The position numbers were made by a program, and so were the translations under genes. A model generated the notes under the pieces. It had not been told where the DNA came from and made no database searches. It saw only the letters and a list, made by a program, of their open reading frames with translations. Of a stretch of DNA of 64,000 bases, positions 20,710 to 62,672 are shown piece by piece (the first letter of the stretch is position 1; each line of letters opens with the position of its first letter). Source of the DNA: Bacteroidota bacterium (GTDB taxonomy: Bacteria > Bacteroidota > Bacteroidia > Chitinophagales > BACL12); the NCBI GenBank assembly GCA_029571985.1, contig JAKQVC010000160.1, positions 36,864 through 100,863 on the forward strand, written 5' to 3'.

Positions 20710-21501
20710 ATGCATATCAACCTACATCCATACACAGCATTGGTATGCGGCAGTACTCAGGGTATTGGTCGCGCAACCGCACATGCTTTTGCAGAAGCAG
20801 GAGCCCGTGTAATTTTAGCAGCACGCAATCGAGAAAAACTGGAATCAGTATTATCGACTCTGCCCCGGCCGCAACAACAGGCGCATGGTATACTGGTTGC
20901 CGACTTCAGTGAGCCTGAGTCAGTGCGGGCAGCCATCACGGCATTGGTGTCTGATTCTGACAACAGGGTGCATATTTTGGTAAACAATACCGGCGGACCG
21001 GCGGCTGGAAAAATTGCGGAGGCAAAGGAAGAGCAGTTTTTGGCCACCTTTAACCAGCATCTTATCTGCAATCATATATTAGTTAAAGCCCTCCTTCCGG
21101 GAATGCGGGAGAGTGGTTACGGGCGCATTATTAATATTATCAGCACTTCCGTAAAAGTGCCGCTTCCCAATTTGGGTGTTTCCAATACCATACGGGGGGC
21201 AGTGGCCAGTTGGGCAAAAACCTTGGCGAATGAGCTCGGTCAGTACGGTATTACCGTAAATAATGTACTGCCCGGCGCAACTAAAACGGAGCGACTGGCT
21301 GGAATCATCACAGCAAACGCCTCAAAAGCGGCCCAGACTGAGGCGCAGATTGAATCTAAGATGTTGGAGGAAATACCCCTGCGTCGTTTCGCCGAACCCA
21401 CTGAAATAGCCGCTGCAGCTGCCTTTTTGGCCAGTCCGTTAGCAGCCTATATTAATGGTATCAATTTACCGGTTGACGGTGGCAGAACACCTTCTCTCTG
21501 A
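20710..21501 (+). CDS. short-chain dehydrogenase/reductase (SDR, FabG-like)
   Basis: VCGSTQGIGRA cofactor motif, NNTG, and the S...Y-type catalytic region. The start could also be 20686. Confidence 0.85.
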   Translation: MHINLHPYTALVCGSTQGIGRATAHAFAEAGARVILAARNREKLESVLSTLPRPQQQAHGILVADFSEPESVRAAITALVSDSDNRVHILVNNTGGPAAGKIAEAKEEQFLATFNQHLICNHILVKALLPGMRESGYGRIINIISTSVKVPLPNLGVSNTIRGAVASWAKTLANELGQYGITVNNVLPGATKTERLAGIITANASKAAQTEAQIESKMLEEIPLRRFAEPTEIAAAAAFLASPLAAYINGINLPVDGGRTPSL

Positions 21502-42645: not shown

Positions 42646-43152
42646 CTAACTATACATATATGGCGTTTGCGCATAAGCGAGTTTCCGCACATTTTCCATC
42701 GCATGACGCATATAGGATTTCCAAAACAAGTGCACAAAAAGCCATTGGAACGGATACAATATAGGCAGTGTTGCGTATAAAGTATAGGTGTAATTAATTT
42801 TGGTTTGCTGTTCACTAATAGGCAGAGTTTCCCACTCGCCTACAAAGCGATTGAAACCTAACATCCACGATTGAAAATCATCAACCTGAATTTTCCATAA
42901 AGCATTTTCTTTACGATCTAAAACGGTATCTCGAGATACATAGCCACCCTTGAAATTCATATTTTTTTCAGCATATACACGTTTTGTTCCGCCTATTTTG
43001 CCCCAGTTTTCATCATCGGTTACATGCGATAATTTAGGCATAAAACCATAACCTGTATGCACAAGTGTTACATCGCACAGCATAGGGGTTTTAAAGGCAT
43101 TTTCTAAAGGGCAATTGAAGGTGGTTGAGATGGTGATTTTGAATATGGGCAT
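42646..43152 (-). CDS. hypothetical protein (possibly SRPBCC-fold)
   Basis: 168-aa ORF with a good coding look. The family assignment is uncertain. Confidence 0.45.
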   Translation of the reverse strand: MPIFKITISTTFNCPLENAFKTPMLCDVTLVHTGYGFMPKLSHVTDDENWGKIGGTKRVYAEKNMNFKGGYVSRDTVLDRKENALWKIQVDDFQSWMLGFNRFVGEWETLPISEQQTKINYTYTLYATLPILYPFQWLFVHLFWKSYMRHAMENVRKLAYAQTPYMYS

Positions 43153-43498
43153 GATAGGATACTTTCAACAAGTTTTTAATAAATTATTATGCATTCATAT
43201 TTGAGGCACTTGATACGAATAAATTGTAGGCGTTACAAAATTAAAGATTTTGGCTTAACTGGCATTAGCTATTACCTTCAGGATACCAGCTTTTATGCTG
43301 CGTTAAAGTAATGCCCTGATGCACATCTGCAGCCATGTATGCCAATTTTACCGGCTATAAATAGTCTCCCATGTCGGTATTGAATGCTTGGTATGAATGG
43401 CTAATGGGGCCTATTATTGGGATTCATGTGTATTGATTTGGTTTGATTATAGCAAATCAGAAGAATTATATTTATTTTTAACAAATAAAACTTATTTT

Positions 43499-45206: not shown

Positions 45207-45250
45207 GGAAGCTCAATTTTAAACGTAAACCTAAGAAATAGGAATTAATG

Positions 45251-45298
45251 TGCGGAGGTGCGGATGTGCGGATGTGCGGATGTGCGGAGGTGCGGACG
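45251..45298. repeat. tandem octamer array (TGCGGAKG x6)
   Basis: Read directly: tgcggagg tgcggatg tgcggatg tgcggatg tgcggagg tgcggacg. It lies in a 509-bp non-coding gap. Confidence 0.9.
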
Positions 45299-45661
45299 TG
45301 AAATGCAAGTGTGAAAAGGATTAGCCAATTAGCCGATGTGCCGATTAGCCGATGTGGCGAAGCGGAGTCCTGAGTACTCGCGATGGAATGCAAATGTGAA
45401 AGTGATGTTCGCCGTACGGCGGATTTGTGTGTGAGCGTGTGCGAGTTTGGGGTTGCGTATGATTTTACCTGTACTGCTCTTAAAAAGTATCGCCCTCTCT
45501 GCTAAGTTGGGATTCTTGATGCACCGAGGAAGGAGGTGTGGGAAGAGAGAGTGGTGTAGTAAGTAATTGTGCAAAAGCGCCAACGTGTTGTTGTGCGAAA
45601 GGTGTGTCTGATGCATAGAGGGTGCTTCCGATTGGCTTAAGAAAAAATGGCTTTATATAAT

Positions 45662-47242: not shown

Positions 47243-47542
47243 TCACTCTATTTTCACTATTGAACCCGACTGAATGAAGTGTTCTTTGTCGTTTATGTAA
47301 AAGGTGTAAACGCCTGGTGGCAGATGCTTTAGGTGAACAGGTTGATTACTGACAACATTTGGATTGTTATAAACAGGGACGCCGGCTGAATTAATAATCT
47401 GGAGATTAAAAGTATTCATGTTTTGAAATGCATTTTGAAAATATACCAGATCAACTACCGGGTTAGGGAAAACGGTAAACAAATCTTTAGGAGAAGGATC
47501 TGCAATGACAACAATCATTAGCCAGAGGTGGTTGCAGAGCAA
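47243..47542 (-). pseudogene. stand-alone T9SS C-terminal sorting domain ORF (likely remnant of a truncated cargo gene)
   Basis: The 99-codon ORF has only a TTG start and consists almost entirely of a sorting domain (FTVFPNPVVDLVYFQ...LPPGVYTFYINDK...GSIVKIE). It has no signal peptide or cargo domain and ends 1 nt before the extended RCC1 ORF. Confidence 0.45.
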
Positions 47543-47567
47543 CCACGTATGTTCATCACTTACTCGT

Positions 47568-47603
47568 CATTGCGAGCCGCGACCCAAGGAGCGGCGAAGC
47601 AAT
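47568..47603. repeat. GC-rich imperfect hairpin (cattgcgagccgc ... gcggcgaagcaat)
   Basis: Stems attgc/gcaat and ccgc/gcgg with an internal loop. The ...cattgcgag...cgaagcaatc... motif is a dispersed repeat type I recall from Bacteroidota genomes. It shares GGCGAAGC and TAGCCGAT with the 45320-45365 region. Confidence 0.5.
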
Positions 47604-47633
47604 CTAGCCGATACGCAAGAGCGTAATGCTATT

Positions 47634-47668
47634 ATTCCTCATTCCTCATTCCTCATTCATTATTCCTC
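47634..47668. repeat. tandem heptamer array (ATTCCTC-type, 5 units)
   Basis: attcctc attcctc attcctc attcatt attcctc, read directly. Confidence 0.9.
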
Positions 47669-47676
47669 CATTAAAA

Positions 47677-47692
47677 GGTAGTGAGCAGTGGG
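47677..47692. repeat. left arm of an imperfect inverted repeat (ggtagtgagcagtggg)
   Basis: Matches 15 of 16 positions of the reverse complement of part of 47799-47822 (gggtagtgagtagtgagtagtggg). Confidence 0.7.
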
Positions 47693-47798
47693 ACAATGCA
47701 GGGATTTTGGTGGAGCAGGAGATTATACTTTCGGTTTTTATTATCATAAGAAAAAGCTGCATTCTATGGCCGTAGGCCTTATTGTATTTGTCTCAATA

Positions 47799-47822
47799 CC
47801 CACTACTCACTACTCACTACCC
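47799..47822. repeat. right arm of the inverted repeat; CACTACT heptamer mini-array
   Basis: cc cactact cactact cactac cc, read directly. Complementary to 47677-47692. Confidence 0.8.
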
Positions 47823-47840
47823 GCCATTTCAAGACAAAAC

Positions 47841-47887
47841 TCCTCATTCCTCATTCCTTATTCCTCTTTCCTAATTCCTCTTTCCCC
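47841..47887. repeat. tandem heptamer array (ATTCCTY-type, ~6.5 degenerate units)
   Basis: tcctc attcctc attcctt attcctc tttccta attcctc tttcccc. Same unit and same strand orientation as 47634-47668. Confidence 0.85.
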
Positions 47888-47950: not shown

Positions 47951-47958
47951 TATCTTTG
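47951..47958 (+). promoter_or_regulatory. candidate -7 promoter box of korAB (TATCTTTG)
   Basis: TAnnTTTG match 24 nt upstream of the ATG at 47982. Confidence 0.45.
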
Positions 47959-47981: not shown

Positions 47982-49811
47982 ATGAACATCCAGACTATTG
48001 AAGATGTCGTAATTAAGTTCGCAGGCGATTCCGGGGATGGAATGCAGCTTACAGGCGGACAATTTACCAACAACACAGCCCTTATGGGCGCCGATTTAGC
48101 AACGTTTCCTGACTTCCCGGCGGAAATTCGGGCACCTATAGGCACTTTGCCGGGTGTGTCGGGCTTTCAGCTCCATTTCGGCAGCCGCAAAATCTTTACC
48201 CCCGGCGATCATTGCGATGTGCTGGTGGCTATGAACGTTGCGGCCTTGAAGGTAAACCTGGGCAACCTGAGAAAGGGCGCCATTGTTATCGTGAATACCG
48301 ACGGGTTCGACCAAAAAAATATGCGACTGGCTAACGCCGAAACCAATCCGTTGGAAGATGGAACGCTGGATGGCTATGTGGTGATCAAAATTGATGTGAC
48401 GAAGCTGACACGCGAAGCCTTAAGCGAAATCCAAATGGGGGTTAAGGAAAAAGACCGTTGCAAAAACATGTTTGTATTGGGCTTCCTCTACTACATGTAT
48501 AGCCGCACCCTCGATTCAACTGAGCGCTTCCTCAACAGCAAATTCAGCAAAAAACCGGATGTATTGGAGGCTAACCTCCGTGCCTTGCGCGCCGGTTATA
48601 ATTATGCCGACACAACAGAGGTTTTTGCCTCTCGTTATAAAGTAGAAGCAGCCAAACTGGAGCCGGGTACCTACCGCTCTATCATGGGAAATGAAGCAGC
48701 TGCCATGGGCTTTGTGGCCGCTAGTCAGAAATGCGGATTGCCGCTGTTTTTGGGCTCTTATCCCATTACGCCGGCATCAGATATCCTGCACTACTTGTCT
48801 TATAACAAGAATTTTGGTGTGCGGACCTTCCAGGCGGAAGATGAAATTGCTGCTATCTGCTCTTCTATTGGTGCTTCATTTGGTGGTCATTTAGCGATTA
48901 CGACTACTTCCGGCCCTGGTGTTGCACTCAAAGGTGAAGCGATGGGTTTGGCCGTGATGCTGGAAATACCATTGGTTGTGGTGAATATTCAACGTGCCGG
49001 TCCATCAACCGGTATGCCTACCAAAACTGAGCAGGCCGACTTATTACAGGCATTATACGGTCGCAACGGAGAAAGCCCGATGGTGGTGATTTCTGCAGCG
49101 CGTCCGAGCGATGCATTTGATGTGGCTTTCGAATCTTGCCGCATTGCATTGAATCATATGACCCCGGTAATGATGTTAAGCGATGGATATATTGCCAATG
49201 GCGCCGAGCCTTGGAAATTCCCGCAAAGCAAAGACCTGCCTGAAATTCCGGTAAAATTTGCTGAGCCAATTACAGATGGTTCAGTTTACAAACCATACGA
49301 TCGGGATGAGAAATTGAGCCGTCCTTGGGCGATTCCGGGAACGAAAGGACTCGAACACCGTATTGGTGGTTTGGAGAAAGCGAACATCACCGGAAATATT
49401 TCCTACGACGCAGAAAACCATGAATTCATGGTGAAACTGCGTGATGAAAAAGTAGAGCGTATTGCCGATTATATTCCACTGCAAAAAATTGAAAGCGGTC
49501 CTGAAAAAGGTAAAGTATTGGTACTCGGATGGGGATCTACTTACGGCGCTATTCAAAGTGCAGTAAACCAATTGTTAGCGGATGGATATTCTGTTGCGCA
49601 TGCACATGTGCGTTATCTGAAACCATTCCCTAAAAACCTGGGCGAAATTCTCTTCAATTATGATAAAGTAATTGTACCTGAGATTAATAATGGTCAACTG
49701 GTTAAAGTAATTCGTGATAAATACATGATACCTGCCATTCCATTTAATAAAATCAAAGGCACGCCAATTACCAGTGCAGAATTGATTGATGTAATCATGA
49801 AAAATTATTAA
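47982..49811 (+). CDS. korA: 2-oxoglutarate/2-oxoacid:ferredoxin oxidoreductase subunit alpha (fused gamma-alpha)
   Basis: 609 aa. The N-terminus VIKFAGDSGDGMQLTG is gamma-domain-like, followed by the alpha domain (GSYPITPASDI). Directly followed by the TPP-binding beta subunit. Confidence 0.9.
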   Translation: MNIQTIEDVVIKFAGDSGDGMQLTGGQFTNNTALMGADLATFPDFPAEIRAPIGTLPGVSGFQLHFGSRKIFTPGDHCDVLVAMNVAALKVNLGNLRKGAIVIVNTDGFDQKNMRLANAETNPLEDGTLDGYVVIKIDVTKLTREALSEIQMGVKEKDRCKNMFVLGFLYYMYSRTLDSTERFLNSKFSKKPDVLEANLRALRAGYNYADTTEVFASRYKVEAAKLEPGTYRSIMGNEAAAMGFVAASQKCGLPLFLGSYPITPASDILHYLSYNKNFGVRTFQAEDEIAAICSSIGASFGGHLAITTTSGPGVALKGEAMGLAVMLEIPLVVVNIQRAGPSTGMPTKTEQADLLQALYGRNGESPMVVISAARPSDAFDVAFESCRIALNHMTPVMMLSDGYIANGAEPWKFPQSKDLPEIPVKFAEPITDGSVYKPYDRDEKLSRPWAIPGTKGLEHRIGGLEKANITGNISYDAENHEFMVKLRDEKVERIADYIPLQKIESGPEKGKVLVLGWGSTYGAIQSAVNQLLADGYSVAHAHVRYLKPFPKNLGEILFNYDKVIVPEINNGQLVKVIRDKYMIPAIPFNKIKGTPITSAELIDVIMKNY

Positions 49812-49880
49812 TCCCGAGCGATTTATAACACAAGCAACATTTTGTGACTATATAATTGCATTTAAGCATAAAGAAATACA

Positions 49881-58759: not shown

Positions 58760-58770
58760 AGAAAAAAAAA

Positions 58771-58795
58771 CCCGGCTCAAGGCCGGGTTTTTTTT
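58771..58795 (+). terminator. rho-independent (potentially bidirectional) terminator
   Basis: 9-A run, cccggc / gccggg stem with a 5-nt loop, then an 8-T run. It begins 12 nt after the stop at 58759. Confidence 0.75.
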
Positions 58796-58851
58796 GGTGA
58801 GTGGTGAATGGTGAGTGGTGAACGGTGAATGGTGAACAATGAGTGGTGAGT
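58796..58851. repeat. tandem heptamer array (GGTGARY, 8 units)
   Basis: ggtgagt ggtgaat ggtgagt ggtgaac ggtgaat ggtgaac aatgagt ggtgagt, read directly. Confidence 0.9.
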
Positions 58852-58867
58852 GGATTGGTATGAGGAT

Positions 58868-58898
58868 AAATTTTTCAATGCAGCGCATTGAAAAATTT
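58868..58898. other. perfect 14-bp inverted repeat / hairpin with a 3-nt loop
   Basis: aaatttttcaatgc agc gcattgaaaaattt, read directly. AT-rich, not followed by a U-tract, and located between the two terminators. Confidence 0.8.
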
Positions 58899-58940
58899 CT
58901 ATTTCAAGGTTAAATGGCGAATTGAATAATCGAAAAATCA

Positions 58941-58974
58941 TTAAAATAAAAAAGGGATACATAGTATCCCTTTT
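58941..58974 (-). terminator. rho-independent terminator of dnaN
   Basis: On the minus strand, an aaaagggatac / gtatccctttt stem with a 3-nt loop is followed by UUUUUUAUUUU. Confidence 0.65.
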
Positions 58975-58998
58975 CAGTTATAATAGAATTTAAAATTT

Positions 58999-59019
58999 CA
59001 CTACTCACCACTTACCCAC
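58999..59019. repeat. CACTACT/CACCACT heptamer-like block, inverse complement of the GGTGARY array
   Basis: The reverse complement of cactactcaccacttacccac is gtgggtaagtggtgagtagtg, which resembles units of 58796-58851. Confidence 0.7.
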
Positions 59020-59024
59020 AACTT

Positions 59025-59094
59025 ATTCCTTATTCCTTATTCCTTATTCCTTATTCCTTATTCCTTATTCCTCATTCCTCATTCCTCATTCCTC
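59025..59094. repeat. tandem heptamer array (ATTCCTT x6 then ATTCCTC x4)
   Basis: Ten perfect units read directly. The array ends 2 nt from the dnaN stop codon (59097-59099). Confidence 0.95.
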
Positions 59095-59096
59095 CC

Positions 59097-60215
59097 CTAA
59101 ACGTTCATCATCACCGGCATCACCAGCATCAATAAATCTTCTGCTTCATCAGCTTCTGTAGGTAATAATAAGCCTGCGCGATTTGGTGTCGATAGTTCAA
59201 AACGAACTTCCTCGTTATCCATGGCATTGAGCATTTCTAACAGGAATTTAGCGTTGAAACCAATTTCCATATTTTCTCCGTCATATGCACAGTCAATGCG
59301 CTCATTCGCTTCATTACTGAAATCTAAATCCTGGGCACTTACTGCTATCTCGTTTCCTTTTATTTTGAGGATAACCTGATGCGTTGTTTTATTTGAGAAG
59401 ATAATGACACGACGTAATGTATTCAGAAAATCAGCGCGGTTAATGGTGAGGCGGTTCGGATTTTCCTGCGGGATAACCGCGTTGTAATCCGGATAGCGAC
59501 CTTCAATTAAACGACAAATGAGTTTCACATTGTTGTAGCTGAAGAAAGCAAACGAGCTGTTATAGCTTAAAGTAACCTGAGTTTGCTCACTCGGTAAATT
59601 AGATTTCAGCAGGTTTAAAGCTTTTTTAGGCATAATTAAGGATGAGCCTTTATCCGCTTTAATATCTGTGCGACGATATTTTACAAGTTTGTGTGCATCA
59701 GTAGCCACAAAATTTACACCATCTTTATTTAATTGGAACAATACACCTGTCATAGGTGGACGTAACTCATCATTACTGGTGGCAAAAGCTGTTTTATTGA
59801 TAACCTTTTGCAATACACCTGAAGGCAAATTAATTTCTGATAATTTATCATCGCTGGATACGCGTGGGAAATCATCGCCATTTTCGCCATTTAATTTATA
59901 CTTACCGCGATCGGTAGTAATTTCTACCTGACTGCCATCATCAGATACGCTGAAAGTTAGCGGCTGCTCAGGAAGTGTTTTCAGATAATCAACTAAAATA
60001 CGTGCAGAAATGGCAACCTTGCCTTCTGATTTCGATTCTATTTCCATCCAGGTGGTAATAGATGTCTCGAGGTCGGTTCCTGAAATTGTGAGTTTATTTT
60101 TTTCGACAACAAACAGAAAATTCTCCAGAATAGGCAACACGGTATTCGGGCTCACAACGCCATTCACTGTTTGCAGGTTGCGCAATAACGCGGTCGTGCT
60201 TACGATAAACTTCAT
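59097..60215 (-). CDS. dnaN: DNA polymerase III subunit beta (sliding clamp)
   Basis: MKFIVSTTALLRNLQTVNGVV..., LPILENFLF, three-domain length of 372 aa, and a C-terminal ...LLMLVMPVMMN-type ending. Confidence 0.95.
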   Translation of the reverse strand: MKFIVSTTALLRNLQTVNGVVSPNTVLPILENFLFVVEKNKLTISGTDLETSITTWMEIESKSEGKVAISARILVDYLKTLPEQPLTFSVSDDGSQVEITTDRGKYKLNGENGDDFPRVSSDDKLSEINLPSGVLQKVINKTAFATSNDELRPPMTGVLFQLNKDGVNFVATDAHKLVKYRRTDIKADKGSSLIMPKKALNLLKSNLPSEQTQVTLSYNSSFAFFSYNNVKLICRLIEGRYPDYNAVIPQENPNRLTINRADFLNTLRRVIIFSNKTTHQVILKIKGNEIAVSAQDLDFSNEANERIDCAYDGENMEIGFNAKFLLEMLNAMDNEEVRFELSTPNRAGLLLPTEADEAEDLLMLVMPVMMNV

Positions 60216-61971: not shown

Positions 61972-62021
61972 ACCCCACCCCCGACCCCTCCCCGTCTCCT
62001 TACAGTCGGCGGAGAGGGGGG
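61972..62021. repeat. left GC-rich inverted repeat flanking the DUF559 gene (itself an imperfect hairpin)
   Basis: ...ccccgtctccttacagtcggcggagagggggg. Its partner at 62627-62672 reverse-complements to ...ccccatctcctttcagtcggcggagagggggtg, with about 30 of 32 core positions identical. Confidence 0.75.
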
Positions 62022-62113
62022 ATTCGATATGATTTATCTTGAGAGTTTAAGTTGTTGCAGCTAAATTGGTTTTTGTGTTGAATTTGGTAATTTGGGTCTG
62101 CATCTAATTAATT

Positions 62114-62503
62114 CTATTTTTTATTTTTCAAGTAATTTTTTCTTAATTCAAGTGCATTTAATATTGTCACTAAAGTTTCGGGCAAGTTGCGTTCAATTTT
62201 GCCATTTTCGAACCTGATGATTTGAATGTCATATGAACTAATCACCAAATCTCTCGCCACATCATAATCTTTATTTCCATTGTGCGAGCTGCCATCCAAC
62301 TCAATACCCAAACGCGCTTCTTTACAATAAAAATCCAGGACAAAAAAAGTTCTCGATTGCGGTGTATAACAAATGCCAACAGGGTATTGCCTACGAAATT
62401 CCCAACCATTTAATTTATGGTGTCGCAAAGCCTCCCACATGATGCGCTCAGCGGGAGTGCTTTTTCGGCGTAATTTTCTAACGGTTCGTTTTATATATCC
62501 CAT
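62114..62503 (-). CDS. DUF559 endonuclease-fold protein (Vsr/restriction-endonuclease-like)
   Basis: STPAERIMWEALRHHKLNGWEFRRQYPVG...VLDFYCKEARLGIELDGSSH...D..R...L...G..IIRF is the DUF559 signature. The start at 62503 (MGYIK) or 62512 is possible. Confidence 0.8.
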   Translation of the reverse strand: MGYIKRTVRKLRRKSTPAERIMWEALRHHKLNGWEFRRQYPVGICYTPQSRTFFVLDFYCKEARLGIELDGSSHNGNKDYDVARDLVISSYDIQIIRFENGKIERNLPETLVTILNALELRKNYLKNKK

Positions 62504-62626
62504 GTTAATCACTAAAATATTTGTTGATTTACAATTTGCAGTTTATTATTTCCACACTAACCGCTTATTGTCTTCCTATTAATTATATATGCCTGTGGAT
62601 TACAAATGCAAAATTCACTTCCAGAT

Positions 62627-62672
62627 CACCCCCTCTCCGCCGACTGAAAGGAGATGGGGATGGGCAGGGTTG
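62627..62672. repeat. right GC-rich inverted repeat flanking the DUF559 gene
   Basis: caccccctctccgccgactgaaaggagatggggatgggcagggttg, the inverse complement of the 61972-62021 repeat. Confidence 0.75.

Follow-up and report, generated by a model that had tools for sequence, protein, structure and literature searches.

What kind of element occupies the spacer upstream of korA in an uncultured Bacteroidota lineage, where tandem heptamers enclose an inverted pair and a unique core? The stretch of DNA concerned, called the window throughout, comprises 64,000 nt of a Bacteroidota bacterium (Chitinophagales, BACL12; GenBank assembly GCA_029571985.1, contig JAKQVC010000160.1, positions 36,864 to 100,863 of the forward strand), and an earlier note made from its letters had proposed a single composite repeat element. 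The evidence compiled here leads us to another reading, held with a probability of roughly 60%, namely that the korA-upstream region is a cluster of hypervariable heptanucleotide microsatellites of the short tandemly repeated repetitive (STRR) or long simple sequence repeat (LSSR) type, shaped by slippage and recombination and with no demonstrable locus-specific function. Closely related strains catch the gain and loss of units, a swap of unit type at a stop codon and the gain or loss of a 205-bp block, which provides material to test slippage versus mobility. Pieces of the proposed composite vary independently of each other and the cores of its two supposed copies are unrelated, which speaks against a single element.

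All the blocks that had been reported upstream of korA are confirmed to the base, and the spacer reads as follows.

47243 to 47518 (or 47542), minus strand: orphan open reading frame (ORF) of 91 (or 99) amino acids with a C-terminal domain (CTD) of the type IX secretion system (T9SS), the gene upstream of the korA spacer
47566 to 47604: GC-rich imperfect hairpin GTCATTGCGAGCC...GGCGAAGCAATC, resembling a repetitive extragenic palindrome (REP), outside the heptamer arrays
47634 to 47668: left ATTCCTY array of five units (ATTCCTC three times, ATTCATT, ATTCCTC), with the G-rich RAGGAAT on the minus strand
47636 to 47653, plus strand: left copy of an 18-nt perfect direct repeat, TCCTCATTCCTCATTCCT, which bounds a strain-specific insertion or deletion (indel)
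47677 to 47692: left inverted arm GGTAGTGAGCAGTGGG, about 2.3 units of the RGTGAGY family, G-rich strand plus
47693 to 47798: core 1, 106 bp of unique sequence with a small GGCC-GTA-GGCC hairpin inside
47799 to 47822, minus strand: right inverted arm CCCACTACTCACTACTCACTACCC, that is CCCACT ACTCACT ACTCACT ACC(C), about 3.3 units of a family that is the reverse complement of the left-arm unit family
47841 to 47887, minus strand: right array (ATTCCTY/TTTCCTN) of about 6.5 units, the first 18 nt of which are the right copy of the direct repeat
47951 to 47958, plus strand: candidate -7 box TATCTTTG, matching the Bacteroidota-type TAnnTTTG, 24 nt before the korA ATG
47982 to 49811: korA, with korB next after a spacer of 69 nt (49812 to 49880)

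Two further repeat loci lie in the window, one at the 3' end of dnaN (locus 2) and one made of octamers.

58763 to 58795: bidirectional terminator-like hairpin (A-tract, stem, T-tract), directly 3' of the sigma/anti-sigma operon
58796 to 58851, plus strand: (GGTGART)8 array
58854 to 58993: core 2, 140 bp, kept among strains, with a hairpin at 58868 to 58898 and the dnaN intrinsic terminator at 58975 to 58949 on the minus strand
58994 to 59016, minus strand: about three ACTCACY-like units, the reverse complement of the left-array GGTGART family
59022 to 59094, minus strand: (ATTCCTT)6-7(ATTCCTC)4 array of 10.3 units, 2 nt from the dnaN stop codon
59097 to 60215, minus strand: dnaN, stop codon TAG at 59097 to 59099
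45248 to 45360, plus strand: octamer locus, (AKGTGCGG)6 followed by about four units of the GATTAGCC/GATGTGCC type, between the DUF1905 and RCC1-repeat genes

Two unit families, RAGGAAT (ATTCCTY on the plus strand) and RGTGAGY (complement ACTCACY), are each present at both heptamer loci. The layout at 58796 to 59094 had been called very similar to that upstream of korA; the unit families and their orientation are indeed common to both, whereas the layout differs, with the order (GGTGART)8, 140-bp core, three ACTCACY-like and about ten ATTCCTY units, without a left ATTCCTY array and with a core that has no similarity to core 1. On the plus strand of locus 2, the sigma factor gene and a small downstream ORF converge on dnaN. 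The GGTGART array is placed between the two terminators, and the ATTCCTY array lies within the dnaN 3' untranslated region (UTR), as (RAGGAAU)n, between stop codon and terminator.

The arrays are real features of the genome. Tandem Repeats Finder calls them at 47634 to 47668 (ATTCCTC, 5.0 copies), 47792 to 47820 (CTCACTA, 4.1 copies), 47841 to 47885 (TCCTCAT, 6.4 copies), 58795 to 58836/53 (TGGTGAA, 6 to 8 copies), 59022 to 59093 (CTTATTC, 10.3 copies), 45248 to 45300 (octamer ATGTGCGG, 6.6 copies) and 45319 to 45360 (GATTAGCC-type octamer, about 4 copies). A two-unit ATTCCTY probe, ATTCCTYATTCCTY, has 16 matches in the window with at most one mismatch, all in the two heptamer loci, versus 0.09 expected from shuffles, and a GGTGART dimer probe has 12 versus 1.6 expected. 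Furthermore, the korA-upstream sequence is identical in independent assemblies from NCBI, JGI and ENA samples and the arrays are thus no assembly artefact; the exact KorA protein is also encoded on NCBI contig JAMHLF010000186.1 (GCA_035904245.1), with the gene arrangement of the window, and on contigs of several ENA metagenome assemblies. All arrays of the window are located between ORFs with family matches, and the rotating-frame ORFs that run through them, which have no family match, are annotation artefacts.

Strain variation at the repeat loci

Sibling strains are represented by metagenomic contigs (L001 and L003 to L006) with flanking DNA 95-98% identical to the window; the contig L006 covers no part of the locus 2 arrays. 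Units per array compare as follows.

korA upstream: window, 5 units, a 172-bp unique block and about 7 units; L001, L003/L004 and L006, 8 units; L005, 7 units
Locus 2, left array: window, 8; L001, 7; L005, 7; L003/L004, 22, the last seven being GGGGAAT/GGGGAGT
Locus 2, right array: window, 3 ACTCACY and about 10 ATTCCTY; L005, 3 ACTCACY and about 7 ATTCCTY; L001 and L003/L004, about 16.7 ACTCACY up to the dnaN stop codon and no ATTCCTY
Octamer array at 45248: window, 6; L001, L003/L004, L005 and L006, 3

The single array upstream of korA in the siblings corresponds to the right array of the window (47841 to 47887). Every length difference between strains amounts to whole units, in agreement with the suggestion that the arrays are prone to slippage, and variant units are grouped, that is homogenised inside an array. 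Clustered variants together with whole-unit changes are what slippage with local homogenisation predicts. On the right of locus 2, the unit type changes from the third base of the dnaN stop codon onwards (TAG-GGGAGGAAT... versus TAA-GTGAGTG...). In L005, the sibling form at locus 1 occurs together with the window form at locus 2, which shows that the loci vary independently of each other. In mechanistic terms, replication slippage, unequal or ectopic recombination between arrays and deletion mediated by repeats would be the processes at work.

The arrays appear to occupy dispensable DNA: at korA they lie upstream of the candidate -7 box, and at dnaN one is placed between stop codon and terminator and another between two terminators. 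The stretch at 47951 to 47958 is a candidate promoter box of korA, as judged from its motif; it is also found, as TACCTTTG, in the relative L136, and the arrays stop 63 nt upstream of it. This box and the T9SS sorting domains both indicate Bacteroidota. We infer that the arrays have no korA-specific regulatory job.

Unit numbers that vary between strains, next to a gene for a secreted protein with a T9SS CTD, can be cited for a contingency (phase-variation) locus, at which gain and loss of units would switch korAB or the T9SS-cargo gene divergent from it. The arrays would be in the wrong place for a classical locus of this kind, as they are neither in a reading frame nor beside the candidate korA -7 box. 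Identical unit families also occur between terminators and in a 3' UTR, places that allow no switch, and the neighbours korAB and dnaN are housekeeping genes. Moreover, the korA-upstream region is identical on all contigs of the window-type lineage that cover it, from several samples. Phase variation is considered very unlikely.

Other differences between window and siblings were observed alongside. The loop of a hairpin in core 2 (58879 to 58885), AAATTTTTCAATGC-AGC-GCATTGAAAAATTT in the window, reads GCT in L001, L003 and L004 (about position 20890) with the stem kept, a small hairpin-loop inversion polymorphism. At window positions 43121 to 43463, compared with L001 2486 to 4262, the siblings have about 1.8 kb more, with two genes, for a protein of 218 amino acids and a cyclic nucleotide monophosphate (cNMP)-binding protein of 199 amino acids, neither of which is present in the window lineage. 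Elsewhere in the window, a DUF559 gene (Vsr-like endonuclease fold, 132 amino acids, 62114 to 62512, minus strand) lies between 41-nt inverted repeats (61980 to 62020 and 62629 to 62669, 88% complementary), and gene and repeats together (61980 to 62669) may constitute a small mobile cassette.

The central block upstream of korA

About 205 bp in the middle of the korA-upstream repeat region are present in the window lineage and missing in the siblings. Presence/absence variation, the lack of which had been named as a sign of neutral simple-sequence expansion, is thus observed. Both junctions of the indel carry the 18-nt perfect direct repeat TCCTCATTCCTCATTCCT (47636 and 47841), and in silico deletion between the two copies yields the L005 array save for one base. 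Repeat-mediated deletion between ATTCCTY arrays of the same orientation could remove the block. The indel would fit a loss of this kind in the siblings as well as a gain by the window lineage, two possibilities equally compatible with the outgroup evidence.

The window-type korA haplotype is linked to a 1.43-kb deletion that made the orphan CTD ORF. Compared with L001 (8019 to 9718), the ORF at 47243 to 47518 is the remnant of a 482-aa gene, and the window lineage is without 1432 bp of the siblings, comprising the body of this gene and about 250 bp upstream. The right breakpoint of this deletion coincides with the end of a REP-like ...CTCGCAATGAC element. The hairpin at 47566 to 47604 exists in one copy in the window, and the sibling strains have a second, inverted copy just upstream.

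A block that is present or absent, small, devoid of an ORF with a family match and limited by inverted arms invites comparison with a MITE, a miniature transposable element with inverted repeats. The inner arms, GGTAGTGAGCAGTGGG and CCCACTACTCACTACTCACTACC, of 16 nt, match as inverted repeats at 15 of 16 positions and pair in the predicted fold as a 15-bp stem, modestly better than shuffles (z = -2.5). The MITE-like idea of the earlier note can be phrased as a non-autonomous mobile or hairpin cassette, arm, core 1 and arm with heptamer ends, inserted into a pre-existing ATTCCTY array, the modules of G-rich arm, core and C-rich arm being mobile in general. Filled and empty sites are indeed observed, but an empty site is equally explained by repeat-mediated deletion. 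No target-site duplication is seen at the inverted arms (flanks ...CATTAAAA and CGCCATTT...); the 18-nt array sequence, lying 24-40 nt further out than the arms, is the only repeat flanking them, and it is there, in the outer arrays, that the indel junctions are found, as typical of repeat-mediated deletion. Neither the insert nor core 1 or core 2 has a second copy in the window or in the compared loci L001 to L124. A mobile cassette upstream of korA appears unlikely, also in view of the wider survey below.

The same fold and 15-bp stem could mean that core and inverted arms form a structured small RNA. Rfam 15 gave no match at gathering thresholds (whole window) or permissive thresholds (both heptamer loci), the sole matches being sub-threshold and to terminator hairpins. 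A scan detected no promoter-like or terminator-like site within the korA-upstream element, the only promoter-like match of the scanned region lying outside (47370 to 47398). A core homologue was found neither in the window nor in loci L001 to L124, and the block is missing from siblings and relatives, with nothing of it conserved in the latter. A small RNA is extremely improbable.

Arrays in relatives and across phyla

Upstream of korA, relatives with 78-90% KorA identity (L133 to L138) have no array in the orthologous spacer; they have unrelated DNA and different neighbours there. Three of them (L133, L135 and L136) have a korA-korB spacer of 128-164 nt in which octamer arrays (ATGTGCTG, AATTAGCW and others) follow immediately on the korA stop codon. 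The 69-nt korA-korB spacer of the window contains no octamer array, and the related octamers ATGTGCGG and GATTAGCC of the window sit at another spacer. In L135 and L136, the same spot upstream of one gene is occupied by (ATGARKG)4.6 and by at least 12.6 units of GAGTAAT. This shows that a lineage-specific repertoire of units recurs at different spacers; the class persists, single arrays do not.

On a broader scale, species-representative genomes were scanned for (ATTCCTY)3, which gave at least 118 stretches, with more in existence. All counts given below are among the matches listed, and they are indicative, the survey having been seeded with one unit and ORFs having been defined by a simple long-ORF heuristic. 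The matches come from Bacteroidota, Firmicutes, Acidobacteriota, Planctomycetota, Verrucomicrobiota, Campylobacterota, Cyanobacteria and other phyla (examples are L122 3070-3314, L069 7535-7688 and L025 3002-3078), and the loci usually have several more heptamer arrays of other units. Array length has its mode at 31 nt, about 4.4 units; the arrays of this lineage have 5-22 units.

Where two GGAAT-family arrays neighbour each other within 400 nt, 32 pairs converge with the G-rich arm leading, 15 are tandem and none is divergent, and of the adjacent reverse-complement pairs, with about 14 clearly different unit families, 41 are G-first and none is C-first. The long ORFs that flank arrays, at distances of 0-30 nt, are convergent in 16, tandem in 18 and divergent in 6 cases. 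The G-rich strand leads away from the abutted ORF in 72/82 arrays, with 51 to 3 at 3' ends and 21 to 7 at 5' ends. All arrays of the window, at locus 1 (inner arms), locus 2 and the octamer locus, obey this convergent and outward rule. These regularities generalise across phyla the description given by Rehm et al. (2015) of the Xanthomonas and Nostoc repeats.

As the G-rich strand leads outward from the gene next to it, arrays that share a spacer converge in pairs on the sequence between them, which at locus 2 is the terminators. The impression of a bracketed core would hence come from two gene-anchored, outward-pointing arrays that share a spacer, and not from transposon ends or a selected hairpin. 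Within a pair, the two arms are, by inspection, often uniform internally yet unlike each other at the same unit position.

For the MITE-like alternative, the fixed handedness of the pairs and the typical arm length of about 31 nt are favourable, as both would be expected from defined transposon ends, and some pairs, for example in L122, have mirrored variant units. Set against this, no common core is seen between loci, not even inside a single genus, and neither a transposase nor another recurrent gene is found near the arrays. Paired arms, too, often show systematic differences in the type or number of units, as with eight GGTGART versus ten ATTCCTY units in the window or AGTTAGG versus AATGAGG in L048. 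All-against-all clustering of ORFs from the 118 array loci gave no recurrent neighbour protein and no associated transposase or binding protein, but only generic clusters (response regulators, histidine kinases, ABC ATPases) and repeat-derived pseudo-ORFs.

Some of these cross-phylum loci have further structure. In Hymenobacter (L122 3060-3330, L092 3550-3665, L025 2990-3085), 31-nt arms, (AATGAGG)4.4 and (CCTCATT)4.4, have TTAA on both sides and are bordered by GCGCTTAA, on the left in all three loci and on the right in L122 only. The arms of L122 enclose a long palindrome of a GCAAGGAC...GGCAATC motif that resembles the window hairpin at 47566 to 47604, and a similar GATTGCCACG...CGTGGCAATC palindrome stands between the arms in L105 (Clostridiales).

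Further ideas were rejected. Complementarity of the arms is not maintained for a hairpin function, the arms being homogenised internally but often differing from each other. Nor are the cores always strong hairpins, as z is below -2 in only about one third of the cross-phylum cores. Stop codons in three frames fail as the cause of the orientation rule: GGGAATC and GGGGAAT have no stops on either strand and still obey it (PMC4692102).

Might the arrays instead be functional cis elements, either cooperative sites for a heptad-reading protein or elements in the RNA (G-rich 3'-UTR tracts, stem extensions) with an effect on mRNA stability, Rho loading or termination? Binding to arrays of heptad operators is well established, as for the omega repressor of inc18 plasmids, and ribbon-helix-helix repressors read heptad operators. 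By analogy, tandem heptamers could be bound likewise. The non-random orientation relative to genes, the location within 0-30 nt of stop and start codons, the transcription of the dnaN array as (RAGGAAU)n, the same units at several loci and the preference for about four units in other genomes (see also PMC4692102) can all be cited in favour. A functional site would hardly be expected to have 7 to 22 units in one place and to have its unit type replaced outright in another, to be missing from the orthologous korA spacers of relatives, or to let the arms of a pair lose complementarity. Only about one third of the cross-phylum cores are unusually structured, no candidate binding protein is encoded nearby, and Rehm et al. 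found no regulatory effect of the Xanthomonas repeats (PMC4692102). A cis-acting function is regarded as unlikely.

The reading as slippage- and recombination-shaped microsatellites is not without difficulties, and several observations weigh against it. The identity of the korA-upstream region within the window-type lineage implies that mutation is too slow to vary inside that lineage. The 205-bp indel may be an insertion or a deletion, as the outgroups (78-90% KorA identity) have unrelated DNA upstream of korA. Good inverted repeats at the inner blocks, combined with a presence/absence polymorphism of the block, are what a MITE would show. The strict orientation rule argues against pure neutrality. 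Finally, the same two unit families are found in two spacers that are unlinked and 11 kb from each other, and the relatives have related units in spacers that are not orthologous, a recurrence which independent local slippage would not predict and for which some dispersal, conversion or sequence-specific process is needed.

A tentative and rather unlikely proposal is that heptamer arrays are the footprint of one orientation-locked process common to bacterial phyla and not passive products of slippage. It builds on arrays flush with gene boundaries, the G-rich strand leading away, the invariable order of G-arm, core and C-arm and the length peak at about 31 nt. If true, the arrays would be actively built or inserted, by repeat addition at DNA ends or as hairpin-associated cassettes, or would pass a universal selective filter. 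Active building or insertion would make the korA block such a cassette, caught as an insertion polymorphism, whereas a selective filter would remove the other orientation via Rho loading on C-rich nascent RNA or via spurious starts, a Shine-Dalgarno sequence plus AUG, on the G-rich strand.

Relation to known repeat systems

In many bacteria, no long simple repeats are more over-represented than tandem heptamers, which have been known since the cyanobacterial STRRs, to which the earlier note correctly pointed. Its further statement that the architecture is uncharacterised in Bacteroidota holds within the literature searched, and searches with the repeat strings and the REP-like hairpin string gave nothing relevant, but intergenic heptamer arrays of Bacteroidetes (PMC4679880) and convergent pairs in Xanthomonas (PMC4692102) have been published. 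The locus adds a Bacteroidota example with several natural strains diverged by only 2-5%, which most earlier descriptions lack, and its arrays are hypervariable markers for tracking strains of the organism in metagenomes. The dispersal of unit families, and, among the matches listed, the strict G-first handedness and the mode of about four units are the points of remaining interest.

Contingency simple sequence repeats of Haemophilus and Neisseria share unit-number hypermutability by slippage with these arrays, but they are located in reading frames or between promoter elements and have units of mostly 1-5 nt, whereas neither coding nor core-promoter sequence contains the arrays described here. 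MITEs (Correia elements, for example) and REPs or bacterial interspersed mosaic elements are similar in being small, non-coding and intergenic, with inverted termini around a core and presence/absence variation, and REPs also in a distribution that favours 3' ends and operon spacers over divergent promoter regions. Differences are the lack of a target-site duplication and of a conserved core in multiple copies, arms that are variable tandem arrays, and no associated transposase or REP-associated tyrosine transposase (RAYT) gene seen.

More akin are the simple repeats with long units. Mrazek et al. (2007), cited in both PMC4679880 and PMC4692102, are summarised in the former as having identified heptanucleotides as the most abundant class of long simple repeat, with polymerase slippage proposed as the origin. 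Cyanobacterial STRRs and these LSSRs are, like the present repeats, dispersed, lineage-specific and over-represented intergenic heptamer families, with polymerase slippage as the origin proposed in that account; unit sequences are different, and the present families are known from 64 kb plus related loci. MacGregor (2015) described TAACTGA heptamers in Beggiatoaceae, cyanobacteria and five Bacteroidetes; in the Bacteroidetes, the long arrays have other heptamers in the same spacer, and close relatives lack them (PMC4679880). The resemblance is to Gramella forsetii and Aequorivita sublithincola, where long heptamer arrays stand beside others in one spacer and the corresponding spacers of close relatives are shorter and without arrays. 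The Beggiatoaceae repeats differ in unit and, unlike the present arrays, stand in forward orientation a few nt upstream of start codons.

Close resemblance is also seen to the heptamers of Xanthomonas and Nostoc. Rehm et al. (2015) described 186 GGGAATC arrays in Xanthomonas campestris, and GGGGA(C/T)T arrays in Nostoc PCC 7120, mostly of four units, with 70-75 convergent inverted pairs and a non-coding bias, rarer between divergent genes and varying in length and sequence between close species; no regulatory role was found for the Xanthomonas repeats (PMC4692102). The repeats of the window are unlike these in belonging to a different phylum, in having 5-22 units versus a mode of four and in juxtaposing two unit families in one arm. 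They also have mostly GG runs, so that G-quadruplex formation, the focus of that study, would be weak except in the GGGGART variants. They share tandem 7-nt units in non-coding DNA, convergent pairs, a G-rich strand that points away from the nearest gene and variation in length and sequence between close relatives at one spacer. Even the units are close to GGGAATC, as RAGGAAT rotates to AGGAATR and the sibling variant GGGGAAT to GGGAATG. The repeats upstream of korA and beside dnaN are thus a new addition, from an uncultured Bacteroidota lineage, to the class of heptamers already described in Xanthomonas and cyanobacteria.

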